DNA of 64,000 bases from an uncultured delta proteobacterium (GCA_963803975.1 CAWDOY010000003.1:112446-176445); one strand, 5' to 3'. Counted from the first letter of the stretch, positions 5,702-53,239 are shown. Numbers and translations: made by a program. The notes: generated by a model not told the origin, from the letters alone.

Positions 5702-5731
5702 ACACGGTATAAACCCGTTACGCAGCGCTCA

Positions 5732-6601: not shown

Positions 6602-6918
6602 AGAACCCCCTTTAGCACGAGTGCGTTGTATAGAGATACTGTCTTATAATTTAATGACTCACCAGTTTGTATAATAAATTATTATTTTTTACAATAGAAA
6701 TCTGAACAGGACGCGCTCTCATAATAACAGCTATATAAATTTCGGGGAAAGTCCTGAAATCTGAACGGTTGCAGACTTATTTTTATTGACATTTAAGCAT
6801 GCCTTCCCTTATAAATAAATGTTTACAGTATATATTAGTTCAATGCCCATCATCAGTTACTGGCTGATCATTTTCCATAATCACGGTAAAAATTAACCAC
6901 TGGAGAAGGAAAACAGGC

Positions 6919-9006: not shown

Positions 9007-9023
9007 AATTTATAGCATTCTCT

Positions 9024-9533
9024 ATGGATAACGAAAACGTTGTTGACGAATCGCAGTTTCCCAAGGAACTGATTGAGGAAAAGGAAGAACCGAAGGGGGC
9101 GCCGCCGGAGCAGAAGATATCCGAGTCACTCTATGGCAAAATCATGATGATGTCGGTAAGCGAAAAAATCAAACTGGCCACCATCGGCAACAGGGAAGCA
9201 CGCAATATTTTAATAAAGGAATCCAACAGAATTGTTCTGAGCGCAGTTATTAACAGTCCGAAGATGACTGAGGATGATGCACTCATGTATGCATCAAACC
9301 GGAGCCTGTCAGACGAAGTAATCAAGCTCATAACCCTGAAAAAAGAGTTTCTGCAGAATTATAGAATTAAACTTGCCCTGGTGACTAATCCCAAAACACC
9401 TCCAACCATTTCCCTCAAACTGCTGAGCCACGTTATGGAAAAAGACCTGCGCAGTTTGTCAAAAGACAAAAACGTTAACCCGCTAATTTCGCGTCAGGCC
9501 ATGCGCGTGCTATCCAAACAGGGTAAGATATAA
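9024..9533 (+). CDS. hypothetical protein
   Basis: 169-aa ORF directly downstream of the EF-G paralog; no family recognised. Confidence 0.4.
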   Translation: MDNENVVDESQFPKELIEEKEEPKGAPPEQKISESLYGKIMMMSVSEKIKLATIGNREARNILIKESNRIVLSAVINSPKMTEDDALMYASNRSLSDEVIKLITLKKEFLQNYRIKLALVTNPKTPPTISLKLLSHVMEKDLRSLSKDKNVNPLISRQAMRVLSKQGKI

Positions 9534-30947: not shown

Positions 30948-31893
30948 TCAAGTATTTACCCCGGCTTTTTCGAGAAGTATTCCCTCCAGAAGCCCGGCAT
31001 CGCTTACCGACAGTTCCTGAACATGCAGCAGCTCCATAATGGTCAATACAATAGCAGTCCCGGCAATAATAACTATTTCCCGACCCGGCTCGAGCCCCGG
31101 CAAATCAACCCTTTCTTTAGAATTAAGGGTAATAATCATATTATAAAGATAATTCAGATAATTATAAGACAAAATATGTTTATTAACCTTATCTATATTG
31201 TACTCAACGAGCTTCAGATCCATTGCTGCAAGGGTGGTAACAGTGCCGGCTGTTCCGATAATGCGGACGTTTTGACTAGTTACTTTTAATTAAATTATTA
31301 ATGATATTACTATTAGTTAAAATTATTGATCTGATGGTATGGTTTAAAATATTGAGGTCATCTTTCAGGGGCGGGTCGTGCTGTAAATACTGTTCAGAAA
31401 GAGTGACAACACCAAGGGGAATACTTTCCACACACTCTATTGACTGGTTGCTGGTAAGAATAAGCTCTGTGCTTCCTCCGCCAATATCGAGGATAAGCGA
31501 CAGATTAGGGTTATCGTTAAAAACAGACTGAACACCTTTCAGGGAAAGGTTCGCTTCTTCCTCTCCGGTTACCAATCTCACCAAAAGATTGGTCTCTGTT
31601 AAAACATTATTTAGAAATGCCCTGCCATTTACAGCTTCCCTGACACATGCAGTTGCAACAGCATAGATATGTTCTGCTCCTTTTTGCCGGGCGCTCATGA
31701 CAAACTTTTTTATGCATGATAACGCCCGGTTCATAGGCTCATTTTGCAGCTGTTTGCTCTCGTTCATCCCCTGACCGAGCCTGACTATCGAGCGATCCCG
31801 GTAGATGGGAACAATCCCGCCATTATTGCTTACATCTGCAACAAGAAGACGAATGGTTTGCGTGCCGATATCAATTGAAGCGTAGCGGGGCAT
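30948..31893 (-). CDS. Ppx/GppA-family phosphatase, frameshifted between the two ORFs
   Basis: IDIGTQTIRLLVA and DIGGGSTE in ORF 31276..31893; C-terminal VIIAGTAIVL...VSDAGLLEGILL in ORF 30948..31223. Confidence 0.6.
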
Positions 31894-31949: not shown

Positions 31950-33216
31950 TCAATAGCACCAATCAAAACCAATGAAACCAACATAACCAATACAATTATT
32001 TGATTTTGTTAACAGTTTGTTTAATTCATCCTTTGCCTTAAAGCCAAAATCTTTTATCTTTTCAGGGGTGCTGAGGGCATTGCCTGCAAGTGAGCCGACT
32101 TTCTTTGCAATACTTCCGGCGATCTGCTGAATGATTTTTTCACGTAACTTGAACTTTAATTTATCAAAATTACCCTTCACCTGAAAATCAAAATCTATGC
32201 TGCCGTTAGTTGTTTCCAGTACTTTCATTAGCCCTGCTGCCGGCAGACCCAGGAAGGTTTTGCCCAGAAGGGTTTTATCCCTGCCGGTTAACGTGAGATT
32301 TTTAACCTCAACATGATGGCTGCTGTCCAGATAATCATCTTTAATACTGATCTTTGACGTAACCCAGGCATTGCCATCCTCTATTTTCACGGCAGTGTCA
32401 GGGTAATAATAGTAATAATCAGAGAGGTCTATATTGTCGATTTTGCTTTGCGCCGTAAGGGTAAGCTGTTTTTTAAACAGCAGCCCTTCTCCAGTGCATT
32501 TCAAGGGGGCCTTATGCTGTGAAGAGGTGAGCGAAGCGGTGATGGTAAAAGTAGTTTTAACATCTTTTGTGTTAGGGACTATAACATCTTCTATTTCGAT
32601 ATTCAGTTCAGTTAAAACAATCGTTGGGTCCTGACTGCGGGTTTTGTAATTATAAATCGTAAGGGTACCATCTTTGACAACAAGATTATTGATGTGAAGA
32701 GTAAAGGGTTCGGGAGAATTTTCAGAGGCAACCGGAAAGGAAGATTCTTTTGCCGGCAGAACAGAAGAAGTATTTGTTGCTCTCTCCGCGTTCAAGGCTA
32801 TCAGTCTTTGAAGAAAATATGTAGTCAGTATTAATCTTTTCATCACGGGTCATTATTACCGTAAACTCCGGTTTGATAATGGTGATGTTTTTAAAAGGCA
32901 GGCTATTCCTGAAAAGAGGTAATATTTCAAAATTGCTTTGTAATGATGCTGCCTTTAGCAGGTTCCCCTTTCCAAAGCCCTCCGGCTGCAGCAGCTCAAC
33001 ATCCTTTAATTCAACCATCCAGCGAAAGAGTGAAATATTGACAGAACCGATTTTAAGCCTGTTCTGAAAGATGGGATAAACCCTTTGCTCAACAATTCTC
33101 TGGGCTATGGGATTTATATAAAATGGAACTATCGCAAGAATTACTATTATAATAGCAACAAGTATGAATAGAATTTTTAAGCCCTTATTTTCATAAAACA
33201 TTCCCCTAATCCCCAT
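31950..33216 (-). CDS. membrane-anchored hypothetical protein (AsmA-like/DUF748-like), one frameshift
   Basis: N-terminal TM helix; beta-rich repeats; ORFs overlap 32722-32846. Confidence 0.3.
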
Positions 33217-33579: not shown

Positions 33580-33876
33580 ATGAATAAAACCCCCCCTGCA
33601 GGACCTGAATCCGCTGAGATCCTCCTCTACCAGACCGAGGACGGACAGACGCGGCTGGAAGTGCGCTTACAAGACGAAACCGTTTGGCTCACACAGAAGC
33701 GAATGGCAGAGCTATTCCAGAAGGATGTCCGAACAATCAACGAACACATTAAGAACATCTTCACGGAGGGCGAGCTCAAGTCGGAATCAGTTATCCGGAA
33801 TTTCCGGATAACTGCGGATCAGAACACAACAGTATCAGAAGGAATTCTCGATGGCAAAAAGAACCGCCTCTCTTGA
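33580..33876 (+). pseudogene. RhuM-family protein, N-terminal fragment
   Basis: ILLYQTEDGQTRLEVRLQDETVWLTQKRMAELFQ matches the RhuM N-terminus; truncated at 98 aa. Confidence 0.6.
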
Positions 33877-34198: not shown

Positions 34199-34239
34199 AG
34201 ACTACTTCAGGGAGGCTTATCTTCTTCCGGCGCTAACTT

Positions 34240-34560
34240 GTTCGCGGTCAAAGAGTGATTATGGATTGCGATCTTGCAGCGTTAAACGGCATTCCGACCT
34301 TTAGATTTAATGAAGCGGTAAAGCGCAACCAAAAACGGTTCCCTGATGATTTTATGTTTCAATTAACTGCTCCGGAATATGCAGTTTTGACATCGCAATT
34401 TACGATGTCAAAACCTGGCAGGGGTGGACGAAGAACCCTTCCTTATGTCTTTACCGAACACGGTGCCATCATGGCGGCAAACATAAGGCTAAGAGCTGAT
34501 AGCTCTTGCACCGGTGCTGAAGGCTACTAAAAAGAAAAAAGAAGGCAAGATGCCTAGTAA
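34240..34560 (+). pseudogene. ORF6N-domain gene copy A, 5'-truncated and internally deleted
   Basis: IRGQRVIMDCDLAALNGIP...RFPDDFMFQLT...GGRRTLPYVFTEHGAIMAAN, then a remnant of the family's 3' end (gtgaactaaaca). Confidence 0.5.
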
Positions 34561-34611
34561 CAAAAAGAGGGAAATGTGAACTAAACAACAGGCAGATAAC
34601 TATTTAAAAGT

Positions 34612-36190
34612 GGCTGTGGGGGTGTTGAAAAAGTCTCCGTGAGAAATGATTATATGATATGCTGCAGAGCAAAATCAAACATAATCATGGAGACATTATG
34701 ATAGGCAAGCAGGACCGTTGGCAGCGGCACTTATTTATCGCAGGAGACATCGATCAGTTCATTCCTGAAGATCACATACTGCGGCGGGTAGATAGAATCC
34801 TTGATTTGAGCTGGTTGCGAGAAGAAGTGCGGGGGAGTTACTGTGAAGAAAACGGACGGCCAGGGATAGACCCGGAAGCAGCAGTACGGCTGATGCTGGC
34901 CGGGTTTTTTCATGGGGTAGTGCATGATCGGAAGTTAATGAGAGAGGCACAGGTAAATCTGGCGCTCCGATGGTTTGCGGGATACAGTCTGGAAGATAAA
35001 TTGCCGGATCATTCGAGCCTGAGCCGGATACGGCAGCGCTGGGGGGAAGAGCGGTTTAAGAAGATATTTCAGAGGACGGTACAGAGCTGTATAGCAAAGG
35101 GGTTGGTGAGCGGAGAAACAGTGCATATCGATGCGACCTTGATACGAGCGGACGTGTCGTGGGAGAGCATAACCGAGAGACACGCAGAGCAGGTGGTGGC
35201 AGAGAACAATACCGAGGAGGACAACCGGGCGGAAGATCCATTGCCACGGGGGCCGGGACGACCGCGGACAAAGAAGGAGCATCCGAAGAAGGTAAGCAGT
35301 ACCGACCCGGAGGCAACGCTGGTGACCTCACGGAGGGATTTTCACCTTGAGCCGTCATACAAACAGCACACGGCAGTCGATGACAAGGAAGGGGTAATCG
35401 TAGATATTGAGATAACGACTGGAGAAGCGAATGAGGGCCAACGGTTACTTGAGACGGTAGAACGAATTGAGCAGACAACCGGGAAGAAGCTGGGCCGGGT
35501 AACGGCAGACAAGAGCTACGCACATGCACGGAATTATGAGGGGTTAGAGAAACGAGGGATAGATGGCATCATACCGCCGGAGCGGGAGCGGGTGAAGGAG
35601 AAGCGGATACCGATCAGGCGGTTCAAATATGACGGCAAGCATCAACGGGTACGGTGTCCTGGAGGTAAAAGTCTGGAGCGGGCAAACCGTACGAAGAATG
35701 GGTGGTTCTACCGCGCACGGAAGAGTGATTGTAGCGCTTGTCCACTACAGAAACGCTGTATCCCTGAGACAGCGAAGGCACGGGTGATACTCATTGTAGA
35801 CGGCTATGAGGCACTGTTGCGAGCGCGCAGGAGAAAGAACCGTGGCTGGGATACAGATACGCAACGGGTCTATAACCGGCATCGGGTTTATGTTGAAGGA
35901 GTGCATGGTGAGGGTAAAACGCAGCATGGCTTGCGGCGGGCAGTACGTCGCGGATTAGCAAATGTGGCGATTCAAGTGTATTTGATAGCGGCAGTAATCA
36001 ATCTGAAGCGGCTGGCCAAGGCCTTAAGCCCCCGACCAGATGATGGAGACTGGTATTTAATTATTCGTAACAGGTTAGGAGCTGTTATTAAACAGTTTTT
36101 TGGTGATTGGGTAGAAAAACTGTATAGCGCTTTGTTTTGTGCTGCATGACAATACTTATAGAGGGGGTTTTTCAACACCCCCGCTGTCCC
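34612..36190 (+). mobile_element. IS5/IS1182-family insertion sequence
   Basis: Terminal inverted repeats GGGGGTGTTGAAAAA (34618-34632) and TTTTTCAACACCCCC (36168-36182) flank a 496-aa DDE transposase. Confidence 0.8.
34659..36149 (+). CDS. IS5/IS1182-family DDE transposase
   Basis: N-terminal InsH-like domain (IPEDHILRRVDRILDLSWL...PDHSSLSRIRQRW); 496 aa. Confidence 0.85.
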   Translation: MLQSKIKHNHGDIMIGKQDRWQRHLFIAGDIDQFIPEDHILRRVDRILDLSWLREEVRGSYCEENGRPGIDPEAAVRLMLAGFFHGVVHDRKLMREAQVNLALRWFAGYSLEDKLPDHSSLSRIRQRWGEERFKKIFQRTVQSCIAKGLVSGETVHIDATLIRADVSWESITERHAEQVVAENNTEEDNRAEDPLPRGPGRPRTKKEHPKKVSSTDPEATLVTSRRDFHLEPSYKQHTAVDDKEGVIVDIEITTGEANEGQRLLETVERIEQTTGKKLGRVTADKSYAHARNYEGLEKRGIDGIIPPERERVKEKRIPIRRFKYDGKHQRVRCPGGKSLERANRTKNGWFYRARKSDCSACPLQKRCIPETAKARVILIVDGYEALLRARRRKNRGWDTDTQRVYNRHRVYVEGVHGEGKTQHGLRRAVRRGLANVAIQVYLIAAVINLKRLAKALSPRPDDGDWYLIIRNRLGAVIKQFFGDWVEKLYSALFCAA

Positions 36191-36194
36191 CACA

Positions 36195-36614
36195 TAAGGC
36201 GGATTTCCTGAAGATTTCATGTTTGTGCTATCCAGCGAAGAAGCTAAAAACTTGAGGTCACAAATTGTGACCTCAAGTTTACCCCATTGGGGTGGTTCCC
36301 GCTATCTGCCTATGGCCTTTACTGAACAGAGCGTTGCAATGTTGTCCAGTGTACTTAAAAGTGATCGAGCTATAGAGGTTAACATCCAGATTATGAGGGT
36401 GTTCACCAGGCTTAGACAAATACTCTTGGGCAATAAAGATCTAAGGCGGGAACTTGAAGAATTAAAGCGGGTTACTGATGATAGGTTTCGTGTCGTTTTC
36501 GAGACACTGGACCAGTTGTTAAGTAATGATGAAAGGCCCAAACGAAAAATCGGGTTCGAGGTGAAGGAAAGGGCGGCAAGATACCGGGTAAACAGAAAGA
36601 AAACTGTGAACTAA
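36195..36614 (+). pseudogene. ORF6N-domain gene copy B, N-truncated at the IS right end
   Basis: Resumes at RFPEDFMF right after the IS right IR; C-terminus KERAARYRVNRKKTVN. Confidence 0.55.
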
Positions 36615-37440: not shown

Positions 37441-38039
37441 TTGATGAAAGATAAACTATCCAGATATGAGCCAGAAGATATTGAAAGAAGAATTTATACT
37501 ATTCGCGGTCAAAGAGTGATTATGGATTGCGATCTTGCAACATTATACGTCATTCCGACCTTTAGATTTATGAAGCGGTAAAGCGCAACCAAAAACGTTT
37601 CCCTGATGATTTTATGTTTCAATTAACTGCTCCGGAATATGCAGTTTTGACATCGCAAATTGCGATGTCAAAACCTGGCAGGGGAGGACGAAGAACCCTT
37701 CCGTATGTCTTTACCGAACATGGTGCCATCATGGCGGCGAATGTGCTCAATAGCCCGAAAGCAATAGAGATGAGTGTTTTTGTCGTCCGTGCATTCATTA
37801 AGATGCGTGAAACTCTTGCTAATAATAAAGCACCGGCGTTAGAATTGTCAGAGCTTGAAAAGAAACTTACCGGGCGGCTTAATGTCCATGAAAGAGCCAT
37901 TGTGCATGTTTTGGCCGAGATAAGAAAGTTAATGGCTTCAGCAGAGCCGTCACCTGAACCGACAAAACAAAAAATAGGATTTACGGTAAAGGAGAAGGCG
38001 GCAAGATACCAGATAACAAGAAAGAAAACTGTAAACTAA
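37441..38039 (+). pseudogene. ORF6N-domain gene copy C with a 1-nt frameshift near 37570
   Basis: MKDKLSRYEPEDIERRIYTIRGQRVIMDCDLA then a stop; resumes in FPDDFMFQLTAPEYAVL...AARYQITRKKTVN. Confidence 0.55.
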
Positions 38040-38064
38040 ACATAAAGATAATAAACAGGATTCT

Positions 38065-39525
38065 ATGTTTGAACAAGCCTTCAAAAACATCGACGACGTC
38101 CTCTGGAAAGAGGCCGGCTGCACCACCGAGCTGGACTACACCGAGCAGACCTCCTGGCTGCTGTTCCTGAAATACCTCGACGGGCTGGAGCAGGACAAGG
38201 CCGATGGAGGCCGCGCTGGAGGGGAAGAAGTACACCTACATCCTCGACAAGCCCTACCGCTGGGAAAGCTGGGCCGCGCCCAAGGGCAAGGACGGCAAGC
38301 TCGACCACAACAAGGCCCTGACCGGCGACGACCTGCGCGACTTCGTCAATCAGAAGCTCTTTCCCTACCTGCACGGCTTCAAGCAGAAGGCCAGCGGGCC
38401 GAACACCATCGAATACAAGATCGGGGAGATCTTCGGCGAGATCAAAAACAAGATCCACAGCGGCTACAACCTGCGCGAGATCATCGACCACATCGACGAA
38501 CTGCGCTTCCGCTCGCAGACCGAGAAGCACGAGCTCTCGCACCTCTACGAAGCCAAGATCAAGAACATGGGCAACGCCGGGCGCAACGGCGGCGAGTATT
38601 ACACCCCGCGCCCGCTCATCCGCGCCATCGTGCAGGTGGTCAAGCCCAAGATCGGCGAGCGCATCTACGACGGCGCGGTCGGCTCGGCGGGCTTCTTGTG
38701 CGAAGCGTTCGACTACCTGAAGAGCCAAGCCCAAGCTGCACCACCGCCAGGACCTGAAGACGCTGCAGGAGCGCACCTTCTACGGCAAGGAAAAGAAGTC
38801 GCTCGCCTACGTCATCGCGATCATGAACATGATCCTGCACGGCATCGAGGCGCCGAACATCATCCACACCAACACGCTCACCGAGAACCTCGCCGACATT
38901 CAGGAGAAGGACCGCTATCGACGTGGTGCTGGCCAATCCGCCCTTCGGCGGCAAGGAGCGCAAGGAGGTCCAGCAGAACTTCCCCATCCGCACCGGCGAG
39001 ACCGCCTTCCTGTTCCTCCAGCACTTCATCAAGATGCTCAAGGCCGGCGGGCGCGGCGGCGTGGTCATCAAGAACACCTTCCTCTCCAACACCGACAACG
39101 CCTCGGTGAGCCTGCGCAAGCTGCTGCTGGAAAGCTGCAACCTGCACACCGTGCTCGACTGCCCCGGCGGCACGTTCCAGGGCGCGGGCGTGAAGACCGT
39201 GGTGCTGTTCTTCGAGAAGGGCGCGCCGACCCGCAAGGTCTGGTACTACCAGCTCGACCCCGGCCGCAACCTGGGCAAGACCAACCCGCTCAACGATGAC
39301 GACCTCGCCGAGTTCGTCGAACTGCAAAAGACCTTCGCCGACTCGCCCAAGAGCTGGAGCGTGGACGCCAAGAGCATCGACCAGACGACCTTCGATCTCT
39401 CCGTGAAGAACCCCAACGGCGGCGAGGAAGTCACCCACCGCAGCCCGCAGGAGATCATGGACGAGATCGCCGCGCTGGATGCCGAGAGTGCGGAGGTGCT
39501 GGCGAACATCAGGGCGCTGCTATGA
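38065..39525 (+). pseudogene. hsdM: type I R-M methyltransferase subunit, at least 3 frameshifts, ~65% GC
   Basis: HsdM_N start MFEQAFKNIDDVLWKEAGCTTELDYTEQTSWLLFLKYLD; NPPFGG motif in ORF 38923..39525; read through 4 overlapping ORFs. Confidence 0.75.
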
Positions 39526-40770
39526 AGAACGGGTGGCAAACGAAGAACGCTTGGGCGACGTCTGCGAGTCATCGACTACGGGCAAGCACGCCAGCAAAGA
39601 CAATCGACCGTTCTGACGGCAATCACTGACGAATGTGATATCTGCGGTCATTACAGACTGTAACCGATGAAAGTTCGTTGACAGACCGAGACATGTCGAT
39701 ATGGTCAGCGATGCTCGAGCAATTCCAGAAGGGTGACGTTCTGTTTGCGACATCACTGAGTCACGTCGGGCAAGGTCGCGCATTGCATACTGACGAGCGA
39801 GTTGCTATCGGCACGACGATGCGCATTGTCTGCATCCGACCAATGACGCAAGCTATTGACTCGAGATTCTTGCTTTACTATCTGCTTCTATCGACTAGTT
39901 CAAGAGCATGTTCGAGCAGCAGATGGAGTCAGGCGCGACCGTCAAGCGTAATCAAAGTCGAGCTTCAAGAGCATTCAGATTCCCATTCCCCCGCTCCCCG
40001 AACAGCAGCGGATCGTCGGCATCCTCGACGAAGCGTTTGACGGCATCGCCACCGCCAAAGCCAACGCCGAAAAGAACCTCCAAAACGCCCGCGCCCTCTT
40101 CGAAAGCCACCTCCAATCCGTCTTCACCCAGCGCGGCGAGGGGTGGGTGGAGAAGACGCTTGGAGAATCTGTCGAATGATCAACGGCGACAGCGGAAGCA
40201 CTATCCGACCGAGAGAATACGTCGAGACGGCATTCCTGTTGTGAACACCGGACAAACGTTCGATGCACGATGGTACTTGTCGCAGACGATATATGAGTTA
40301 CATTCGACCAAGGATGCTACGAATCCACGAAGACGTGCAAATTCAGCAGGCGGCGACGTCTGATTGTTGCATCGACGGCGCAACCGCTGGAAGAGCGGCA
40401 TTGCGATTGTCCGACACCGCAGCGAGCTTACGACATCTGCTTGATCAGCGTCGATCTCAGTTACAGCAAGCAGTCGCGACATAGTCGCTTCGCTTTATCT
40501 GCTATGCTTCAAGTCCGAGGATCTTTCAGGCAGACATCACGTTGATGACAGTTCTGGCAGCTGCACAACAGCTCAACTTGAGACTAAAGCTGTTGAGACT
40601 CTTCGATGCCATCTCCTGAATCGACCGAACAAGCAAGTCAGTATCTCGAAAGCTCGATGACCTCGTCAGACCGAAACCCAACGCCTCGAATCCATCTACC
40701 AGCAGAAGCTCGCCGCACTGGAGGAGTTGAAAAAATCGCTGCTGCACCAAGCCTTCAGCGGCCAACTTTA
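39522..40770 (+). pseudogene. hsdS: type I R-M specificity subunit, heavily frameshifted
   Basis: LGDVCE..., DSRFLLYYLL..., IPIPPLPEQQRIVGILDEAF... and ...YQQKLAALEELKKSLLHQAFSGQL lie in different frames. Confidence 0.55.
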
Positions 40771-40780
40771 GGAATACGCC

Positions 40781-43196
40781 ATGAACGAAGCCGAAACCCG
40801 AGCCGAACATATCGACCCTGCGCTGAAAGCGGCGGGCTGGGGCGTGGTTGAAGGCAGCCGCATCCGGCGCGAGTATCCGATCACGCTGGGCCGCATCGAA
40901 GGCCACGGCAAGCGCGGCAAGGCGCTGACCGCCGATTATGTGCTGGAGTACCGCAACACCAAGCTGGCGGTGGTCGAGGCCAAGGCGTGGGACAAACCGC
41001 TGACCGAAGGCGTGGGGCAGGCCAAGGACTACGCCGGCAAGCTGGCCATCCGCTTCACCTATGCCACCAACGGCCAGGGCATCTACGGCATCGACATGGA
41101 GACCGGCGCCGAGGGCGAACTGGCGCAGTATCCGACGCCGGATGAACTGTGGAACCGGACCTTTGCCACGCAGAACGCCTGGCGCGACCGCTTCGCCGCC
41201 GTGCCGTTCGAGGACAAGGGCGGCTACTTCCAGGGCCGCTACTATCAGGACATCGCCATCGAGCGGGTGCTGGAGGCCATCGCCGACGGACAAGCAGCGC
41301 ATCCTGCTGACGCTGGCCACCGGCACGGGCAAGACCTTCATCGCCTTCCAGATCGCCTGGAAGCTGTTCCACAGCCGCTGGAACCTGACCGACTGGAAGA
41401 CGGAGGGCGAACCAACGCGCCGGCCGCGCATCCTGTTCCTGGCCGACCGCAACATTCTGGCCGACCAGGCATACAACGCCTTTTCCGCCTTTCCCGAAGA
41501 CGCCCTGGTGCGCATCGCCCCGGACGACATCACGCAAGAAGGGCAAGGTGCCGAAGAACGGCAGCATCTTCTTCACCATCTTCCAGACCTTCATGAGCGG
41601 GCCGCCCAAGGATGGCCAGCCATCGCCCTATTTCGGCGAGTATCCGCCGGACTTCTTCGACTTCATCGTCATCGACGAGTGCCACCGCGGCGGCGCCAAC
41701 GACGAGAGCAACTGGCGCGGCATCCTGGACTACTTCGCCCCTGCCGTGCAGCTCGGCCTGACCGCCACGCCCAAGCGCAAGGACAACGTGGACACCTACG
41801 CCTATTTCGGCGAGCCGGTCTACATCTACTCGCTGAAGGACGGCATCAACGACGGCTTTCTCACGCCGTTCCGGGTGAAGCAGATTTCCACGACGCTGGA
41901 CGAGTACGTCTATACGCCCGACGACACGGTGGTCGAGGGCGAGATCGAGGCGGGCAAGCGGTACGAGGAACCCGACTTCAACAAGATCATCGAGATCAAG
42001 GAGCGGGAGAAGAAGCGGGTCGAAATCTTCATGTCGCAGATCGACCAGCGGGAGAAGACGCTGGTCTTCTGCGCCACCCAGGACCATGCGCTGGCGGTGC
42101 GCGACCTCATCAACCAGATGAAGACCAGCACCGACCCGAACTACTGCCAGCGGGTGACGGCCAACGACGGCGCGCTGGGCGAACAGCACCTGCGGGACTT
42201 CCAGGACAACGAGAAGACCATCCCGACCATCCTGACCACCTCGCAGAAGCTCTCGACCGGCGTGGATGCCCGCAATATCCGCAACATCGTGCTGATGCGC
42301 CCGATCAACTCGATGATCGAGTTCAAGCAGATCATCGGGCGCGGCACACGGCTCTACGACGGCAAGGACTACTTCACGATCTACGATTTCGTGAAGGCGC
42401 ACCATCATTTCAGCGATCCGGAGTGGGATGGCGAGCCGCTTGAGCCGGAAACTGTCCAAAATGCGGCTGCTATCCCTGCCAATGCGAAAAGCCACCGCCG
42501 AAACCTTGTCCGGTCTGCGGCAAGCAGCCTTGCGAATGCGTCGAAAGAACCGTGCCCGAACTGCGGCAAGCGTCCGTGCGTGTGCAAGAAGAAAGCGAAG
42601 GTGAAGCTCGCCGACGGCAAGGAACGCACCATCCAGCACATGATGGTGACGAGCTTCTGGCACCCCGACGGCACGCCGATGTCGGCGCAGCAGTTCATGG
42701 AAGTGCTCTTCGGCAAGCTGCCGGAGTTCTTCAAGGACGAAGAGGAACTGCGCGCCCTCTGGAGCGCGCCGGATACGCGCAAGAAGCTGCTGGAGGGACT
42801 GGCCGAAAAGGGCTTCGGCAAAGATCAACTGGCCGAGATGCAGAAGATCATCGACGCCGAGAAGAGCGACCTGTTCGACGTGCTGGCCCATGTGGCCTAT
42901 GCCCTGCCGCCGCTCACCCGTGAGGAACGGGCCGCAAAGGCCAAGGTCATCATCAGCACAGCATTTCAACAGCAAGCAGCAGGTCTTCCTCGACTTCGTG
43001 CTGTCGCATTACGTGAGCGTCGGCGTGGAGGAACTCGACCAGGACAAAGCTGACACCGCTGCTGCGGCTCAAGTATCACGACTCCATTGCCGATGCCGTG
43101 GCCGACCTGGGCAAGCCGGAGGAGATTGGCAAGGTGTTCGCCGGCTTCCAGAAGTACCTCTATCAGCAGCAAGCGGCAGTAACGCAAGAAAAATAA
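40781..43196 (+). pseudogene. hsdR: type I restriction enzyme R subunit, at least 4 frameshifts
   Basis: N-terminus ETRAEHIDPALKAAGW; helicase motifs [24 protein letters not shown]; read across ORFs 40781/41061/41548/42890. Confidence 0.75.
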
Positions 43197-43259
43197 GTTA
43201 AATACGGGCTAACAAGGCACCGTACACACAGGGCAACAGATACTATTCGTGGAGTATAC

Positions 43260-44327
43260 ATGGTGAGTGATAAACTGCTGAAAAAAACAATTTCGGCACA
43301 GGGCGAAGTTTTACTCTATCAGACCGAAGACGGCGCAACTCGAATTGAAGTACGAATGGAGGGTGAAACCGTCTGGATGACGCAGGGAACCATGGCGGAA
43401 CTGTATCAGAACCACGCCGCAAAATATCACGCTTCATTTAAAAGCCATTTATGAGGAGGGCGAACTGGAGGAAGGAGCAACTTGTAAGGAATTCTTACAA
43501 GTTCAAAATGAAGGGGCGCGGAAGGTGACCCGGTCACGAAAATTCTACAGTCTGCCTGCTATTCTTGCAGTCGGCTATCGTGTGCGCTCACACCGGGGAA
43601 CACAGTTCCGGCAATGGGCAACTGAACGGCTTACTGAATATCTCGTCAAGGGCTTTAACCTTGATGACGAGCGATTTAAAAGAGCTGGCGGCGGCGGATA
43701 TTTCGATGAGCTGCTCGCCCGCATCCGCGACATACGCTCATCAGAGAAGGTTTTCTGGCGCAAGGTGCTTGATATTTACGCCACGAGCATTGACTATGAC
43801 TCTCCACGGAAATGTCACAGAAATTCTTTGCCACAGTGCAGAACAAAATGCACTGGGCTGCCCACGGCCACACCGCAGCGGAGGTAATCGCCGCGCGTGT
43901 CGATTCTGAAAAACCCAGCATGGGACTCACCAGCTGGACTGGCGCTCATCCCAACAAAGATGATGTGAGCATTGCGAAGAACTATCTCGACGAAAAGGAA
44001 CTCGATGCGCTCAATCGCATTGTGACACTGTATTTGGAATTTGCAGAACTTCAGGCATTGAACCGTAAACCCATGTATATGGGCGAATGGATCGCCAAGC
44101 TCGACGAATTTCTACGAATAAGTGAGCGCGATATTCTTACTCATGCAGGCAAGGTGAGCCATGAGAACGCTCTACTGAAAGCTGAAACTGAATATCAGAA
44201 GTTCGAGCAGAAGCGTCTGGCTGAACCGACACAGGCGGAGAAGGATTTTGAGGAAGCCGTGAAGAAACTGAGGAAGCTGAAAGCACCCAGCAGGGGAGCA
44301 AAAAAGCCAAAAGGAAAGATGTCATGA
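43260..44327 (+). pseudogene. RhuM-family protein, full length but in three frames
   Basis: VLLYQTEDGATRIEVRMEGETVWMTQ; VGYRVRSHRGTQFRQWATERLTEYLVKGF; FATVQNKMHWAAHGHTAAEVI. Confidence 0.65.
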
Positions 44328-44449
44328 ACCGTTATGTAAATGCAATCGCCGGGCGATTAAGTCTGCGGCAGCCACAGCGTCGCTTCTTGAGAATTAAAGG
44401 GGCAGAGCCCAAAAGACTGCTTCGGTGAAGAATAATATGGAGATAGAAA

Positions 44450-45692
44450 ATGCCTTTAAAATCCTACGAGCACTGCTGTTCTTCCTGTATTGCTCTTGCT
44501 AATCTCGGAAAGATTGAGGGAGTGATACCCATCCTCCATGGACCGCAGGCCTGCGCCTTCGGCAATCAGATCGGCTCCATGTTCTGCCGGCCATCCCGGT
44601 TGCTGACCATTGGCACCACACTTAAAAAGAGTGAAGTTATTTTTGGCGGTGAAGATAAGCTCAAAGAACAGATTGTTAATGTCTATAAACAATACAAGCC
44701 CAAAATTATCGTGATTATTAACACCTGTGTTCCGCAGCTCATAGGCGAAGATTTAAAGGGAGTAATCATCGAGCTGAAGGAAGAACTGCCGGAGCTGAAG
44801 GTGACCTATTGTGAGACCGGATTCAATCAGCCAAAATCTACCCCACTGGGCAATGACGTATCATGGCGGGCGATTATTGACGTGCTGGAGCCCAGGGATA
44901 TGATCAAGGGCTCAGTGGGAATACTGGGGAGGGCAGGGCAGGATGCGGACAGCATGGGCTGTCTTGACGTCTCTGTTGCGGGAAGCGGGTATTACCACGT
45001 TTGCTTTTCCTGCCGGGCACCTTGAAGAAATGGAGAAGATTGTCCAGGCTGAGTATCTGTTCCCCATTCATTTAGTCCCCTATCTGACCAGCAAACGGAT
45101 TAATGAACGGTTTGGCTCAAAGACTGTTTATATTGAACTGCCGGTGGGGATTGCCGGGACTACCAATTTTCTACGCGGAGTTGCCGACCTGACAGGCAGC
45201 ATTAAACTTAAAGAAATTGCAGACCGTGAAGAAAAAAGATCATTGCCGCGATTAGAGAAAATAAGGGAGCAATTCAGACAGAAGCCAACAAAGGTTCTGT
45301 TAGTATCCGGGCCTGCCAATGAAACATCAATTGGGAAAATACTGGCTGAATTCGGAGCAGAAGTGATTATTGTGCCATCCATGCGCAATGCCTTTGCCCG
45401 CCAGGAGCAGGACATTTTGCAAAAGCGCTATGGCTCCCGCATTATCTTCCATGAAAATGACTTTAACAAAGTTTCAGACCTTGTAGGTTTATATAAGCCG
45501 GATGTTGTGTTTGGTGATTTCCAGGCACGCGTTGAGGTTATACGAAACCTTATCCCCTGTCTCATCAACGAGAACTATTTGAATGAATACGGCTATGATT
45601 ATGCCCTGGACTTTGGTGAAAACTTTTTTGAGAACTTGAAGCAGCCATTTTTTACCGAGTGGAAGGATATTATGCGTCAATACGCAGGATAG
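44450..45692 (+). CDS. nitrogenase component 1-type oxidoreductase, NifD/NifE/BchN-like (copy 1), one frameshift near 44960
   Basis: ALANLGKIEGVIPILHGPQACAFG; the second ORF 44943..45692 continues the fold. Confidence 0.7.
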
Positions 45693-45696
45693 AATC

Positions 45697-45775
45697 TGGA
45701 ACTCAGGAACTCATAAATTACAGCCTAATCAAATTAATCTGGAACTCAGGAACTGCATAAATATGATTTTTAAAC
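45697..45775. repeat. two ~26-bp direct repeats in the D-like/B-like intergenic region
   Basis: aatctggaactcaggaactcataaat ... aatctggaactcaggaactgcataaat. Confidence 0.6.
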
Positions 45776-45810
45776 CCTGTGCACGATCGTAGTTTTGTAT
45801 TGGAGATAGC

Positions 45811-47542
45811 ATGTCTGCAACTGACAGAAGAGATTTTATTGCTCCAGAAATAAAGATGAAGGAGATTCATAAGCCATCTTCTTTTGAAGGCGCTTTATGG
45901 GCCGCGCAGGGGATAACAGATGCCCGGGTGATTTATCATGCACCTCCCGGCTGCTATCTTATGCAGCACATGAACTCCATCTGCAATGAATGGCATCCTG
46001 AGATGTACAGCACGCTCATATCATACGCTGAAGTTATGCAGGGCACCGGGAAAAAGCTGGAGGAGGTGCTGGAAAAGGTTGTCGCTGAAAAGCCGCAGGC
46101 AATTATTATAATAACCTCACCGGTGATTGAGATTACCGGCGATGACGTTCAGGGTGCAGTCGCGGCTGCAGGATTCGAGAAGACGGTAATAATAAGACCA
46201 ACCCTGGGCGGCACACTCGCTGATGGAAAGGAAAAGGCATTTATCGCTCTGACCGGACTGATGAAGACAGACGAAGAGAAGCGGAAAAAGTCCGTCAATT
46301 TAATAGGGCCGACCTATAATACGTTCAACTGGCGGGCGGATGTATTTGAACTTAAAAGAATGCTCTCTGCCATCGGTATCTGCGTCAACGCTGTTTTAAC
46401 AGCTGACTGCACGGTTGATGAAATTATACATGCACCCCGGGCTGAACTAAATATATGCATGTATCCCTATGATTGCGGGATAGAATTTGCCAAGAAAATG
46501 CAGGAGCAGTTCAGCATACCGTATATTGCAAGCCATATTCCCCTTGGCTTCCGAGAATCAGCTGCATGGCTTGATGAAATTGCCCGGTTCTTTCTGATTG
46601 ATGCAAAGCAGTATATTGCACAGGAAATAAAAAGTGCCCGGGACTTTGTCACAACGCTTTTGGTAACCAACACCTTCTTTGAAGCAACGGCTGCCCTCTC
46701 AACTGACAACTGTGATACCTACAGCGTCGGGATAAGCAGTTTTCTGAAAAGAGAACTCGGCATGGATGTTTGCATGGCGTCGGTAGCAACTGATGAGGCA
46801 TTGGAAAAAGTGTCCCAGGTTTGCTCTACGGTACTATTAAATCCAAGCATTGATGAGAAAAAGTCGGTAATGCTGGAGAAATCCCCGACCATTATTCTCG
46901 GGAATTACTATGACCTCAAGCTTGCAACTGACCTGGGATTCAAGAACTTCCTGTTTGCGGATATCCCGCTTATCGGATACATCTTTTCAGAAACTACTCC
47001 ATTCATGGGCTTCATGGGTGCTAAGCATCTGGTGCAGGCCATGGGCAATGAGATTTATACCAAGATATTTATTGAGACCAAGGGGGAAATGGAAGGCGCC
47101 ATATCAGCAGGGGAGGTGCCGTGGGAACTCGATGCGGAGCGGGCGCTGGGAAGGATTGCTGAGATGCTCCCTCATTTTATACGTTCAATCGCGCTGAAGA
47201 AAATTCATCAAGTGGCAGATGAGACAGCCGTGCAAAAAAAATCTTCGGTCACGCTGGGGATCCTGCAGGAGGTCGCCACAAAATATACCCCGACGAGGTT
47301 TAAGTCAAAATATGCCACCATCTTTACGGATATAAAAGATACCCCGCTTGTTCCAGATGGCGCTGAGCAGACCGTGTTTCAGATGGAGTGGGATCAGGGC
47401 TGCTAAAGAGATGCTTGAGATGGTGCCCGATGAGTTCGTGGCAAAGGCGGTGAGGGAAACAGAAGGCTATGCCCGCGAGAACAATTATGGTCAAATAACT
47501 ACAGCGGTTGTCGAGGAATACCGGAAGAAGCTCGGCTTTTGA
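45811..47542 (+). CDS. nitrogenase component 1-type oxidoreductase, NifK/NifN/BchB-like (copy 1) with two C-terminal PCP_red-like domains; frameshift near 47395
   Basis: VIYHAPPGCY; PWELDAERALGRIAEMLPHFIRSIALKK; the last domain WSGIRAAKEMLEMVPDEFVAKAVRETEGYARENNYGQITTAVV is out of frame (ORF 47348..47542). Confidence 0.7.
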
Positions 47543-47555: not shown

Positions 47556-48429
47556 CTATTCTTCGTCAAACCGCTTATCCCTCAGACTGTCTACAAACTG
47601 CGGGGTAATGACAGAAATTCCCTTTTCTTTTGCTGCATCAACAACCACTTCTATCATTCCATTCAAAAAGATAGCGGGCACTTTCAAAAGCCGTGCGCAG
47701 GCATCTTCCTGCCATGTGATGTTCGGGTCAAATCGGGAACAGGCATACTTAACGGTTGCCATGGTGTTGCCTTTTCCCCGCGGGATCGGGATAGCATAGG
47801 GCGGTGAGTGCCTGGCAAACCAGAACCGTACATTATCCCGGTATCCATAATCAACGGGCAGGGCAGGGAACCCCTGTCCCTTGAATAAACAATCCCGCCA
47901 TTTTTTCTGCATGATGATTTTGTCAATGCGCAGCAGAAAGTGGTATTCCATGCGCTCTTTATTATGCTGCAGCGTAAAACTCTCATCCCAGCTGCACAAA
48001 AAGACCTGAACCGCCTCTTTCACAATATCAGGATGCGTCGCGCAAACCTGGCGGTTGCGCGGCTTGCCATACGGGGTTGCCGGCAGCAGGGTAAAGATGC
48101 TTCTTTTCATTTTCTCCTCAGTGGTCTCACCGGGATAACCAAGCATAACGCAGTTCTTCATATATTTCTTCGTGTCAGGAATATAATTAAGGGAGCAAAC
48201 TTTCGTGCGTATGATGTTAGCGGCGGTATTGCTGCTGCCGCGTGCGATAAGCATCATGGCGTGCTGCTGGTCTCCCGCGATAATATGGGGAAAGCAGAGT
48301 GAATACGGTCCCAGGTTGATCATCCCGGACTCTGAATAAGGTGCTCACCAGTATCACCGGCATCGGAATAAAACTCGACGTCTGATAAAAGTTATCTACA
48401 ATTCGTATTTCGGTAAAATCCTGAGACAT
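47556..48429 (-). CDS. hypothetical protein with C-terminal PCP_red-like domain; one frameshift
   Basis: TWQEDACARLLKVPAIFLNGMIEVVVDAAKEKGISVIT; ORFs 47556..48323 and 48217..48429 overlap. Confidence 0.4.
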
Positions 48430-48656
48430 GCATGAACCTCCATTGGAAAGAGTAAAATGTTATAATTAACCGCGTTAAACAGATAATATAAGAGCCCTTT
48501 AATTTCAAGAAAAATGAAATTAAAGGGCTGATAAATATATCTTGACTCGAAAGTTGCTTGTGATAATAGTTTGGAAACTAAATATAAGGTATCAAATTAA
48601 ACAGCATGTGGCAACATAATTATTACAGCTGATAATCGGCTGACCATTTACCGGAT

Positions 48657-49192: not shown

Positions 49193-50438
49193 ATGCTTAA
49201 AAGCTATGAGCACTGCTGTTCTTCAATGCAGGCTTTGGCAACACTGGGGAAGGTGGAGGGAATCATTCCTTTGCTGCATGGACCGCAGCCATGCGCCTAT
49301 CAGATTCAGATAGGAACCATGACCTGCCGTCCATCACGCCTTCTTACCGCTGGTACTTTGATTAAGAAATCAGAGGTGGTCTTCGGCGGCGAAGAAAATT
49401 TAAAAAATCAAATAATCAATATGTACCGCCAGTATAAGCCAAAAATAATCGTAATCATCAATACGTGTCTTCCCCAGCTCATCGGCGAGGATATAAAAGG
49501 GGTAATCAGTGAAATAGAACTGGAACTGCCTGATTTAAAAGTGACCTATATTGACAGTGGATTCAATTTCCCTAAATGTATGCCTCTGGGAAACGATGTG
49601 GCGTGGGTATCGATCGTGAGACTGCTTGAAATAAAAGAGAAGGTAAAGGGATCAATTGGTCTGGTTGGAAGGTCAGGGCAGGATGCCGGAGCTTTTACAT
49701 CATTTGACACGTTTTTAAAGCGGGCAGGGATTACGGTATTCCCGTTTCCCGCTCCGCATCTGAATGAAATGGAAAAAATTGCATGTGCAGAAATTATATT
49801 CCCAGTCCATGTAGTACCGTTCCTGACCTGCAAAGAGATGAGCGAACGCTTCGGGTCAAGGGTAGAATATATTGAAATTCCTGCAGGTGTGCAGGGCACT
49901 ACAAATTTCCTGCGGGGGGTTGCTGATATCCTGAAAAACCAGAAGCTGCATGATCTGGTGGATACAGCAGGAGCAGGAAATGCGGCCCCGCATAGAAGCT
50001 ATAAAAGAGCGCTTTGCCAAAAACCCGATTAAAGTGATGTTTGCATTCGGGCCGGCAAGTGAGTTCGGGCTGAGCAAGATTATGGCTGACTTCGGAGCTG
50101 AGGTCATAATGATTCCTTCAATGAAAAATAAGTTCGCACAGCAGGAGAAAGAGCTGCAGAAGAAGCGATACAACGTGACTATTATTGAGGAAGATTTTGA
50201 TACCCTGGAGGATCTCTATGATCAGTACCGGCCGGATGCAGTGTTTTGTGAAACGCAGGGCCGGGTAGAACTTACCTCGCGGCTTATTCCAACATTTTGC
50301 AACATGACTTATTTAACTGCTTACGGATATGACTTTGCTCTGGATATGGGGGAAAAGTTCCATGAGAGTATGAAGCTCGATGTATTATCATCCTGGAGAG
50401 ATGTGGTTCAGAGATACGGAGGCGATCTCAATGCGTAG
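49193..50438 (+). CDS. nitrogenase component 1-type oxidoreductase, NifD/BchN-like (copy 2), one frameshift near 49990
   Basis: ALATLGKVEGIIPLLHGPQPCAY; paralog of 44450..45692. Confidence 0.7.
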
Positions 50439-52194
50439 TACTGAAGGCAAGGCAATGAAGCAGCTGGAACTGGCAGGCGCCCGCGAGCTGAAGATGAAGG
50501 AGATTCATAAGCCTTCAGCGTTTGAGGGGGCTTTGTGGACGGCTCTCGGTATAAAAGATGCGCGGGTTATTTACCACGCACCTCCCGGCTGCTACATCAG
50601 TCAGCATATGGATGCGCTGATGCATGAGTATCCGTTTGAATTATATACGACGTCACTTTCATATGCCAATGTTATGCAGGGTGCAGAGAACCAGCTCGAA
50701 GCAGTGTTGAGAAAAACCCTGGCACGAAAACCAAAACCGAAACTGGTAATCATTGTTACTTCTCCCAGTGTTGAAATAACCGGCGATGATGTGGAGGGGG
50801 TTGTAGAAAAAGTCGGAGATAAAAACTGTGTCGTAATAAGGCCCCCGATTGGCGGAAGCCTGCACGAGGGAAGGGAAAAGGCGTTAATAAGTCTGATAGA
50901 CATAATGGTTCCAGCTGTTGAAAAGATTGCTAAAACAGTTAATTTTATTGGTCCGACTTTTGATACCTTTAACTGGAGAGCTGACGCATTTGAGCTAAAA
51001 AGAATGCTTTCACGTATCGGCATCAAGGTTAATGCGGTACTGACCGGTGGATCACGAGTGAATGAAATTATTAACGCACCACGTGCTTTATTAAACCTCT
51101 GCTTGTATCCCTATGACTGCGGTATTGAGACGGCGCAGATCATGGAGAAGAAATTCGGCATTCCGTATCTTGCCGGCCATGTACCAATTGGTTTTAAAGA
51201 ATCTGCTGTCTGGCTTGAAGAAATTGCTGGCTTTTTCAAGGTGGACGCACGGGAATATCTTAAAGAAGAGACCGAAATGATATTTGAACTAATCCAGTCC
51301 TTTATGGTGCTGCCTATTACGTTTGAATGCTCTGCTGCTCTGTCGCTGGATAATAACGATACCTATGCAGTGGGCATAAGTCAATTTCTGAAAAAGGAAT
51401 TGGGAATGGAGCTCTCCATGGTGGCTGTAGGCAGTGATGCTGCAGGGGAAAAAGTAAAAGAAGTCTGCAGTAATGTTCTGGTAGAACCTACCATTGATGA
51501 AAAGAAGGAGCAGTTTATCGAAAAGGGCCCGATGATGATTATGGGCAACTTTTATGATTTAAAGATAGCCAAAGAACTTGGTTTTAATAACTTCCTCTTC
51601 GCTGATATTCCAACGCTGGGATACATTGCCACAGAGGCAAGCCCCTACATGGGTTTCCAGGGGGCAAGGAATTTGATTCAGCAGACGGGCAATCAGATTT
51701 ATATCAATTTTCTCATTGAGACCAAGGGCGGCATGGAAGAAGCCATCTCTTTGGGAGAAATTCCCTGGGACCTTGATGCACGGGAAGCGTTTGTAAAAGT
51801 CGCAGCCGTAATTCCGCATTTTATTAAAGCTACCGCCATGAGAAAGCTGCAGAAAAAAGCAGAAGAGCTTGCAGTTAAAAATGGCACGGGAATTACTATG
51901 GATATAATTAGAACGGTAACAGAACAGTACACGCCAACCAGGTTTAAATCAAAATTTTTATCTGCATTGCAGGGCGGTCAAGACGGAGAGCAACAGGGGG
52001 AATTTTCTGCAGAACTAACATTTACCATGGAATGGGATGCACCAGCCAGGGAATTGATGGAAAAGATTCCGCAGGAAGTTAAAACAATGGCAGTTGCAGG
52101 TACTGAGGAATTTGCAAGAGAGAAAGGCTACAAAAAAATAACAGTCGGCGTAGTGAATGAGTTCAAAGAAGAGGCCGGCATGGGGAAAAATTAA
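50380..52194 (+). CDS. nitrogenase component 1-type oxidoreductase, NifK/BchB-like (copy 2) with two C-terminal PCP_red-like domains, intact
   Basis: VIYHAPPGCYISQHM; IPWDLDAREAFVKVAAVIPHFIKATAMRKL; MEWDAPARELMEKIPQEVKTMAVAGTEEFAREKGYKKITVGVV. Confidence 0.75.
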   Translation: MYYHPGEMWFRDTEAISMRSTEGKAMKQLELAGARELKMKEIHKPSAFEGALWTALGIKDARVIYHAPPGCYISQHMDALMHEYPFELYTTSLSYANVMQGAENQLEAVLRKTLARKPKPKLVIIVTSPSVEITGDDVEGVVEKVGDKNCVVIRPPIGGSLHEGREKALISLIDIMVPAVEKIAKTVNFIGPTFDTFNWRADAFELKRMLSRIGIKVNAVLTGGSRVNEIINAPRALLNLCLYPYDCGIETAQIMEKKFGIPYLAGHVPIGFKESAVWLEEIAGFFKVDAREYLKEETEMIFELIQSFMVLPITFECSAALSLDNNDTYAVGISQFLKKELGMELSMVAVGSDAAGEKVKEVCSNVLVEPTIDEKKEQFIEKGPMMIMGNFYDLKIAKELGFNNFLFADIPTLGYIATEASPYMGFQGARNLIQQTGNQIYINFLIETKGGMEEAISLGEIPWDLDAREAFVKVAAVIPHFIKATAMRKLQKKAEELAVKNGTGITMDIIRTVTEQYTPTRFKSKFLSALQGGQDGEQQGEFSAELTFTMEWDAPARELMEKIPQEVKTMAVAGTEEFAREKGYKKITVGVVNEFKEEAGMGKN

Positions 52195-52299: not shown

Positions 52300-53239
52300 A
52301 TGAAAAAAACATTGTCAGTACTGTTTGCTTTTATATTTATGGTTAGTTCCGCCTCTATACTATTTGCTTCAGAAGCAAAAAAGGCAGCAACTGCAGGCGG
52401 CAAAGAAAAGATAGGTATTCTTATGGTTGCCCATGGAGAGCCGGAAACGTTTGATGCTCCGGTATGGGAAAAAGGCTTAAAACTGATGTTCAAAGAGTTT
52501 AAGGACTCCGGCATGGAAGTACCTACTGATGAAGCATTTCCGACAATCCTTGAAGAGATTAAGCATAAATATGAGGTTATGGGAGGTAAATCACGCCATG
52601 CCGAAATGTCACGATTGCAGTGCAAGCTTGTCTGCACAGAAGATGCCCGGCTATGATTTCCGTCTTGGCTTTATGGAGTTTATGGGGCCTGAATTTTCCG
52701 AAGTGGCAGAAGGGATGATTAAGGATGGAATTAAAAAGATAGTCTTTCTGCACATGCTGCAGACGGATTCCACACACACCGGAGAAATAAACAACAAGAT
52801 AAAAGAGATGAAGCTTGAGGAGCGGGGGATAAAATACGCAATCAGCAAGCCACTCTTCTACAGACCTGAACCTACGCAGCTCGTTATCGATAAAATTTTG
52901 AAAGCTACCGGGAATACGCCGTATGAGCAGGTCGGGGTTGTGCTTGCATCACACGGAGAACCTGAGGCCTGGGTTAAAGCGAATCTGTTAAATACAAAAT
53001 GCAAAGAGCAGGAGATTGCATTCTGTAACTGCGTAAAAAAGGGCTTAATTGAGAGAGGCTTTGTTTGGGAAAATATTACCCAGGGATTTAATGAATTCCA
53101 AAAACCGGAAATGCCCGAGGCGGTAGAGCTTATGGCTGAACGGAAAGCAAAGAAAGTGGTTGTCATCCCCAGCTTTGGCACTACTGAAGGAATGCATATC
53201 ACCTACGATATACCGACCAAAGCACGGACAGCTTGGTAG
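52300..53239 (+). CDS. secreted two-domain class II chelatase-fold protein (CbiX/CbiK/SirB-like); one frameshift
   Basis: Signal peptide; GILMVAHGEPE and VGVVLASHGEPE half-domains; VVVIPSFGTTEGMHITYDIP. Confidence 0.5.

Follow-up and report, generated by a model that had tools for sequence, protein, structure and literature searches.

The locus described here raises the question of whether a foreign restriction-modification operon, all three genes of which are interrupted by frameshifts, is decaying in its host or has been corrupted in its deposited sequence. It lies at positions 38065-43196 (plus strand) of a 64,000-nucleotide (nt) stretch of DNA from an uncultured delta proteobacterium (GCA_963803975.1, CAWDOY010000003.1:112446-176445), hereafter the window, and consists of the genes hsdM, hsdS and hsdR of a type I restriction-modification (R-M) system. 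An initial annotation had described an operon of ~65% guanine plus cytosine (GC) in a ~45% GC genome, with at least 10 frameshifts and almost certainly inactive as assembled, and had offered as options a horizontal acquisition now decaying, a chimeric contig join or high-GC-specific sequencing error. Judging from sequence comparisons, we consider it likely that the operon is R-M cargo of a variable island, recently acquired and probably intact, and that its frame breaks are errors of the consensus.

The assignment as a type I hsdM-hsdS-hsdR operon was borne out by tblastn searches, DNA alignments with intact operons, and NCBIfam and Pfam models, which gave the same gene order in one orientation; by these models it is a standard three-gene type I R-M system of the EcoAI/FtnUII (type IB) family. 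The first gene, hsdM (38065-39525, plus strand), encodes the N6-adenine methyltransferase subunit, 484 amino acids (aa) once frame-corrected, as placed by tblastn, frameshift-aware alignment and Pfam. Its pieces contain no stop and are 87-91% identical to the intact HsdM of two reference operons, one on the Methylomagnum ishizawai plasmid pRS11DPr4 (NZ_AP019787.1, L001) and one on the JGI contig Ga0598264_0001781 (L020). Pfam recognized HsdM_N and N6_Mtase (E = 2.6e-61), and the motifs DGAVGSAGFL and ANPPFGG (the S-adenosylmethionine-binding motif and the NPPF catalytic motif) are readable in the corrected protein. The specificity gene hsdS (39522-40770, plus strand) was identified by tblastn to the HsdS proteins of L001 and L020 and to further homologues (P0121-P0240). 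Its ATG overlaps the hsdM stop (ATGA) and a gap of 10 nt separates it from hsdR, a punctuation found identically in L020. The conserved centre and C-terminus of HsdS are 83-91% identical to the L020 homologue, while in the two target-recognition domains the retrieved homologues are only 35-50% identical; Pfam Methylase_S matched the first recognition domain of the stitched protein only, the second being too scrambled.

The helicase-nuclease subunit is encoded by hsdR (40781-43196, plus strand), 799 aa after six 1-nt corrections. Corrected HsdR scored 841.8 bits against the NCBIfam equivalog NF046051 (cut-off 550), covering model positions 1-768 of 768, and carries the Pfam domains ResIII, DEAD, SWI2_SNF2, Helicase_C and EcoEI_R_C (PF08463, E = 3.8e-34) together with a Walker A motif (TGTGKT) and a DECH box. 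Three tandem repeats of ~46-54 nt at 42448-42585 (repeat family D5) encode CxxC...CxC zinc-ribbon-like units that are conserved family-wide. The likeness to EcoAI/EcoEI type IB systems is seen in the end-to-end NF046051 match, EcoEI_R_C, HsdM_N plus N6_Mtase, and the HsdS conserved centre and C-terminus; the present operon differs in that all its genes are frame-broken as deposited, and the assignment comes from sequence models.

When intact homologues were used in tblastn, HsdM was recovered as four pieces (frames 1, 2, 3 and 1) and HsdR as five (frames 2, 3, 1, 2 and 3). The underlying events were placed by DNA alignments to L001 and L020 combined with frameshift-aware protein-to-DNA alignment. 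There are 4-5 frame events in hsdM: a +1 nt insertion at 38201-38203 that shifts frame 1 to frame 2 (ACAAGG[C]CGATGG compared with L001 and L020), an insertion cluster at 38723-38750 (A at 38723, C at 38739 and AG at 38749-50; net +4), and a +1 nt insertion at 38916-38922 that shifts frame 3 to frame 1. The extra bases of the cluster, three insertions packed within 30 nt, are missing in both references, and their removal yields DYLKAKPKLTTADLKT, matching the homologues. Six events were found in hsdR, five of +1 and one of -1. Four of the insertions stand at 41288-41292, at 41532-41547 (exact position uncertain within the range), at 42960-42961 (AGCAC[A]GCATTTC) and at 43042-43046. The remaining two events, -1 at ~42451 and +1 at ~42543, enclose an out-of-frame stretch (42451-42543) that makes no stop and is invisible to inspection of open reading frames (ORFs); in the corrected frame it reads CPKCGCYPCQCEKPPPKPCPVCGKQPCECV, which is zinc-ribbon-like and matches the conserved cysteine repeats of the family.

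In hsdS, the minimum stop-free path needs 7 frame switches and homology-guided alignment with a strict penalty places ~10 events, the 27-34 obtained with a lax penalty being over-fitted; at least 7-10 is a lower bound, the recognition-domain homologues being too divergent (35-50%) for an exact count. These breaks are confined to the recognition domains, at about 39550-39950 and 40170-40670, leaving the conserved centre (39960-40165) and C-terminus (40673-40768) unaffected. The operon total is ~20 frame breaks (18-21 events in 5.1 kb), so that the initial annotation was right in finding all three genes broken and its figure of at least 10 was an underestimate. Across hsdM and hsdR we counted 10-11 insertions versus 1 deletion, each of 1-2 nt and mostly outside homopolymers; slippage in such runs and phase variation were rejected on that ground. 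The same frame-broken ORFs, among them P0001 (486 aa) and P0254 (141 aa), are present in a public NCBI/ENA record with a contig 383,918 bp long, and the breaks therefore belong to the deposited assembly.

The frame-corrected proteins bear directly on the question of decay. Six 1-nt fixes gave an HsdR of 799 aa with 0 stops, in which none of 283 invariant and 188 >=95%-conserved columns (471 columns; 105 full-length homologues) is changed; for intact homologues, a leave-one-out comparison gave 0.6 changes on average at the invariant columns. In the uncorrected protein, altered invariant Cys/Pro columns were limited to the 42451-42543 stretch and the mis-framed residues 727-745. With even 2-5 substitutions accompanying each indel, the probability of finding 0 conserved-column changes would lie between 6e-3 and 3e-6. 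HsdM, too, is stop-free once corrected (484 aa), with ~90% identity to an intact homologue. Curated bacterial pseudogenes contain 300 insertions versus 396 deletions over a wide size range with a long tail (PMC6054270), and relative to this spectrum the insertion excess in hsdM plus hsdR gives a binomial p of 7e-4 to 1.5e-3. The signs of a pseudogene, namely stops left after correction, conserved-site substitutions and deletion-biased indels, were absent from hsdM and hsdR, and long-read error rates pseudogenise genes via frameshifts (PMC12007338). Conservation and the 1-nt insertion spectrum together point to consensus errors of an indel-prone assembly and not to neutral decay, and on this evidence the ~20 frame breaks are best explained as assembly or polishing errors in the deposited consensus.

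A genuine pseudo-operon, acquired horizontally and now inactivated in vivo by multiple frameshifts, would account for about 20 breaks at 17-20 times the density of the remaining window; foreign R-M systems can impose a cost and are frequently lost, and the neighbouring insertion sequence (IS) element and the truncated copies of ORF6N and RhuM speak for an island in flux. We nevertheless regard it as improbable, since corrected HsdR has neither stops nor changes at the 471 conserved columns and HsdM is equally clean. The spectrum of 1-nt changes, almost all of them insertions, is unlike that of real pseudogenes; three insertions stand within 30 nt, and identical indel types occur in native genes. 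One frameshift suffices to inactivate a gene, and 5-10 more per gene without substitutions are unexpected under neutral decay. Horizontal acquisition, as proposed in the initial annotation, fits the foreign composition and the island context, but the accompanying claim that the operon is now decaying finds no support: error correction in silico restored full-length ORFs for hsdM and hsdR, an outcome set down beforehand as counting against it. Similarly, the operon is untranslatable as deposited, as had been stated, but biological inactivity is unsupported where 1-nt fixes restore hsdM and hsdR. Counts of "pseudogenised defence systems" in such long contigs would score this operon dead, which calls for caution.

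Indels of the same kind were found outside the operon. Alignment of the window with L002, a 94% identical contig of the metagenome-assembled genome (MAG) LacPavin_0419_WC90_MAG_50_6, revealed coding 1-nt insertions at 44966, 47397 and 49964 and four further 1-nt insertions within 48337-48628, which are intergenic; no 1-nt deletions relative to L002 were present in well-aligned sequence. The right neighbour of the operon, a RhuM-family gene (43260-44327, plus strand; Pfam Virulence_RhuM; about 355 aa after two repairs), has +1 at about 43410 and -1 at about 43801, placed identically with three full-length references. The left neighbour, an ORF6N gene (copy C, 37441-38039, plus strand; Pfam ORF6N), has a 1-nt deletion at about 37570 when compared with a second copy in the window (copy A) and with five independent contigs (92% nt identity); after the 1-nt repair it encodes 198 aa and corresponds to intact 198-aa homologues at 88-89% identity. 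Two Oxidored_nitro genes (44450-45692 and 49193-50438) are each split in two according to Pfam. Overlapping same-strand ORFs that fit a +1 insertion were also found in PanE (4771-5701; Pfam), in Ppx/GppA (30948-31893, split at about 31250), in an AsmA-like gene (31950-33216; Pfam), in a CarboxypepD_reg gene (60467-62186; Pfam), and in two split ORF pairs without Pfam support (1970-2810 and 52300-53239). The genes at 6.9-30.8 kb read through, including an ORF of 1159 aa. Altogether, about 12 coding events fall in the 59 kb outside the operon versus 18-21 in its 5.1 kb.

GC-dependent sequencing error alone, with indels arising only at high GC, would place the peak where it is found, inasmuch as the 5 kb of highest density is the high-GC segment, and short-read polishing suffers coverage bias at extreme GC. 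However, the densest breaks are in recognition domains of ~50% GC, and the conserved parts of hsdS at 60% GC are clean; RhuM (50% GC) and ORF6N copy C (43% GC) carry about 2 events per kb, native genes of 45% GC are affected too, and 62% GC is not extreme for any platform. This explanation, which the initial annotation had listed, is thus very improbable: the same single-base indels occur in RhuM, ORF6N copy C and native genes, and the indel peak tracks the locus, not GC.

Error-prone long-read assemblies resemble the window in that single-base indels split otherwise perfectly conserved genes and cluster regionally; the window differs in its strong insertion bias and in a 17-20-fold local peak as opposed to a uniform rate. 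A clear example of clustered frameshift errors in such assemblies is leuS in the public contig L104 (ERZ25039461 contig_33638; 4844-7583), which is broken into five fragments of 481, 97, 70, 93 and 80 aa. In its relative L108 (ERZ25039503 contig_64186; 6619-9198), leuS is intact at 859 aa.

The composition of the operon confirmed that it is foreign relative to its ~45% GC host. In 150-nt windows, GC is 0.39-0.41 at 37900-38124, rises to 0.62-0.68 from 38125, keeps that level across most of 38125-39550 and 40750-43150, and is back to 0.43 at 43150-43299, which reproduces the jump at the hsdM start and the drop at the hsdR stop that had been noted earlier. The value of ~65% holds for most of hsdM and hsdR but not for the whole operon, whose exact GC is 0.601 (hsdM 0.621, hsdS 0.534, hsdR 0.622; remaining window 0.453); the two recognition domains of hsdS have only 47-58% GC, and likewise in homologous operons. 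GC at third codon positions (GC3) reaches 0.94 in hsdM and 0.88 in hsdR versus 0.475-0.49 in thirteen long native ORFs, and the excess lies entirely at these positions, GC1 and GC2 being alike in operon and native ORFs. Along hsdM and hsdR, GC3 is uniform (0.75-0.98 in 50-codon blocks), on which ground a mosaic of native and foreign alleles in these genes was rejected. In tetranucleotide profile, a check that the initial annotation had suggested, the operon is uncorrelated with the host on both sides (r = -0.03 to -0.15), and the left flank (1-34 kb) and the right flank (44.4-64 kb) resemble each other (r = 0.92-0.95).

At the left junction, a 25-nt AT-rich spacer (38040-38064) separates the stop of ORF6N copy C from the hsdM ATG; similarity to ORF6N relatives stops at 38037 and similarity to hsd operons begins exactly at the ATG, 38065, upstream of which the sequences of the window, L001 and L020 are mutually unrelated. 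The first codons of hsdM are AT-ending, and 23 of the first 24 nt equal those of the Methylomagnum plasmid gene, a high-GC homologue, so that the composition break falls at or before the ATG and not within the gene; the AT-ending start is a family feature, not a recombination scar. This lends no support to an earlier proposal that a native hsdM had been replaced by homologous recombination, nor does the cargo of related loci: relatives of ORF6N copy C carry other cargo, and RhuM relatives adjoin only distant type I families. On the right (43197-43215), ~15 nt 3' of the hsdR stop match the start of the next gene in L020, similarity ending at about 43212. Neither direct repeats nor att-like sites nor an integrase were detected at the boundaries of the operon.

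A simple chimeric end-join is excluded by the host-foreign-host topology with matching flank signatures, and the chimeric contig join of the initial annotation is further contradicted by its left breakpoint, which is also the synteny breakpoint of five contigs, and by the correlation of the operon with both flanks, about -0.1, where the flanks correlate with each other at 0.92-0.95. A more elaborate mis-threading, or over-polishing with another organism's reads, is possible. Here all or most of the operon's bases would come from another, high-GC organism in the sample, threaded in or polished over, and mixed reads would cause the indels and the scrambled hsdS recognition domains. Such consensus contamination would fit a wholly foreign composition with boundaries almost exactly at the ATG and the stop, and a pile-up of non-identical operons would make indels peak in allele-specific recognition domains and leave the conserved hsdS parts clean; moreover, metagenomes very often contain members of the family at 83-92% identity, and the host lineage is known only from MAGs. 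We judge it rather unlikely, as it needs two joins between flanks of one signature, GC3 is ~0.9 throughout hsdM and hsdR with no low-GC patches and no mosaic with a native allele, and no native type IB operon was found beside ORF6N or RhuM relatives. In addition, the left breakpoint is a natural module boundary and L020 similarity extends slightly past the hsdR stop. Five contigs diverge at the ORF6N copy C stop, and the operon family has varied neighbours and lives on mobile elements, which suggests that the breakpoints are biological.

For the likely reading of an intact acquired operon with consensus errors, the following course of events can be proposed. The operon would have been acquired recently, most likely from a Pseudomonadota bacterium of Rhodocyclaceae-like composition and in any case from a high-GC lineage, to land as foreign cargo in a variable island of defence genes and mobile elements in a Thermodesulfobacteriota-like host; with GC3 at about 0.9, no amelioration is visible. 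Like other type I systems, it would form an M2S1 complex that methylates a bipartite target chosen by the two recognition domains of HsdS, and with two HsdR subunits added, the complex would translocate and cut unmodified DNA. An indel-prone assembly, of long-read type, would have left single-base indels in the consensus, and the real operon would most likely be intact and active. The local error peak would reflect poor consensus at a strain-variable island, possibly because only some members of the population carry the island or because the reads included some from other hsdS alleles or from homologous operons. If so, strain-variable islands can have local error rates about 17-20 times as high as the background of the contig. 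An intact operon should also be visible as a bipartite N6-methyladenine motif in the host, usable in methylation-based binning to link the island.

Several findings weigh against this reading. We infer the error origin from the pattern of the breaks only, and a uniform error model does not predict a 17-20-fold difference in indel density between the operon and the rest of the window (p = 6e-13 to 1e-15). The break density of the hsdS recognition domains is extreme, their frame path suggests deletions rather than insertions, and recognition-domain homologues of 35-50% identity are too distant to demonstrate an intact hsdS. Exact look-ups with a fragment of ORF6N copy C, with the DUF2939 gene of the island, with IMPDH and with P0001 did not find the same junction in an independent assembly. 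The contig L002, with which the window is syntenic from 44416 onward, ends about 200 nt before the island, its first 205 nt being a different sequence, and so offers no view of an empty site. The indels could also be real, an insertion-biased and locus-targeted in vivo process disabling the imported operon and leaving its codons otherwise untouched; we hold this to be very unlikely, and if it were true, the scrambled hsdS recognition domains would reflect population-level allele turnover.

The scientific weight of the operon itself is small, since it is an ordinary EcoAI-family system and adds one further example of the transfer of a type IB R-M module between phyla, here to a variable defence island. 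When the longest intact HsdR stretch served as protein query, thousands of homologues were returned; the best of those with full length are 88-92% identical and carry names that point to Rhodocyclaceae, Propionivibrio and Pseudomonadales. Plasmid megablast gave an 85% match over the hsdM and hsdR portions to pRS11DPr4, annotated there as N-6 DNA methylase, restriction endonuclease subunit S and EcoAI-FtnUII family subunit R. This is the best annotated DNA match (hsdM 85.6%, hsdR 83.6%) and has the same gene order, but a Phd/YefM-PIN toxin-antitoxin pair stands between its hsdS and hsdR, its recognition domains are other ones, its GC3 is lower (0.82) and its genes are all intact. L020 holds an intact operon (484, 404 and 799 aa) in the same compact layout, with an HsdR 92% and an HsdM about 90% identical to those of the window, but at only 52% GC, and the type IB family therefore lives in many GC backgrounds, with the window operon matching its high-GC end. 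Comparably high GC3 (0.82-0.89) was found in L109, a Rhodocyclaceae MAG of 62-68% GC (GCA_041396245.1), whose operon has 84-88% DNA identity to that of the window (hsdM 88%) and differs in that GmrSD and a further gene separate hsdS from hsdR. Neither L020 nor L109 has ORF6N or RhuM flanks. The family occurs on mobile elements, such as the plasmid L001 and an integrase/resolvase element (L110), and its neighbours vary. The recognition domains of the window HsdS are unlike those of all retrieved homologues (35-50% identity); a plasmid DNA search with hsdS at a distant setting matched only the conserved hsdS parts, and E. coli genomes gave no match to the operon at megablast level.

The island that carries the operon is a patchwork of ~33.5-44.4 kb, in which a truncated RhuM, ORF6N copy A, an IS1182 element, ORF6N copy B, a DUF2939 gene, ORF6N copy C, hsdMSR and the full RhuM gene follow one another. 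RhuM-type sequences bracket the whole island: the truncated N-terminus at 33580-33876 is a 98-aa ORF that, judged by eye, has about 60% identity with the beginning of the full RhuM. ORF6N copy A (34237-34590) is truncated on its C-terminal side and copy B (36198-36614) lacks the first ~50 residues; copies A and C have a common block of 240 nt at 94-95% identity. Between A and B lies the IS1182-family element (34618-36182, plus strand) with an intact 496-aa transposase (NF033551, 374.8 bits), perfect 15-bp terminal inverted repeats (GGGGGTGTTGAAAAA / TTTTTCAACACCCCC) and a possible 5-bp target duplication, GCTGT. Similarity to the window ends at the ORF6N copy C stop in the five independent contigs, and the cargo downstream of copy C relatives consists of a DUF1016/YhcG nuclease, MNT/HepT and CARF genes, with no hsd. 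A B-like/C-like ORF6N tandem is also present in L104, L106 and L108, in a different genomic neighbourhood. A metagenome scan with RhuM returned relatives of <=70% identity, 14 of 80 loci lying near distant type I genes; a type IB operon stood beside RhuM relatives in none of the 80 loci and beside none of the ORF6N relatives.

With its ~45% GC, the host genome is a relative of Thermodesulfobacteriota MAGs, a lineage that came, together with L002, from a scan of genome contigs with the nitrogenase-like neighbour of the island. To the right of the island, window positions 44416-45187 align with L002 206-980 at 83% identity in the island-proximal 770 nt, compared with 94% beyond, and two stretches of the window, 148 nt (45185-45332) and 48 nt (50486-50533), are missing from L002. 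This region contains two tandem pairs of nitrogenase-like Oxidored_nitro genes, in a cluster at 44450-47406, 49193-52194, 52529-53239 and 53578-54909, accompanied by a MarR regulator, a CbiX/ferrochelatase-like gene and an FAD-dependent reductase; the last Oxidored_nitro gene ends in a protochlorophyllide-reductase PCP_red domain. The tetrapyrrole-type cluster is conserved in Thermodesulfobacteriota MAGs, and in the window one gene of each pair is frame-broken.

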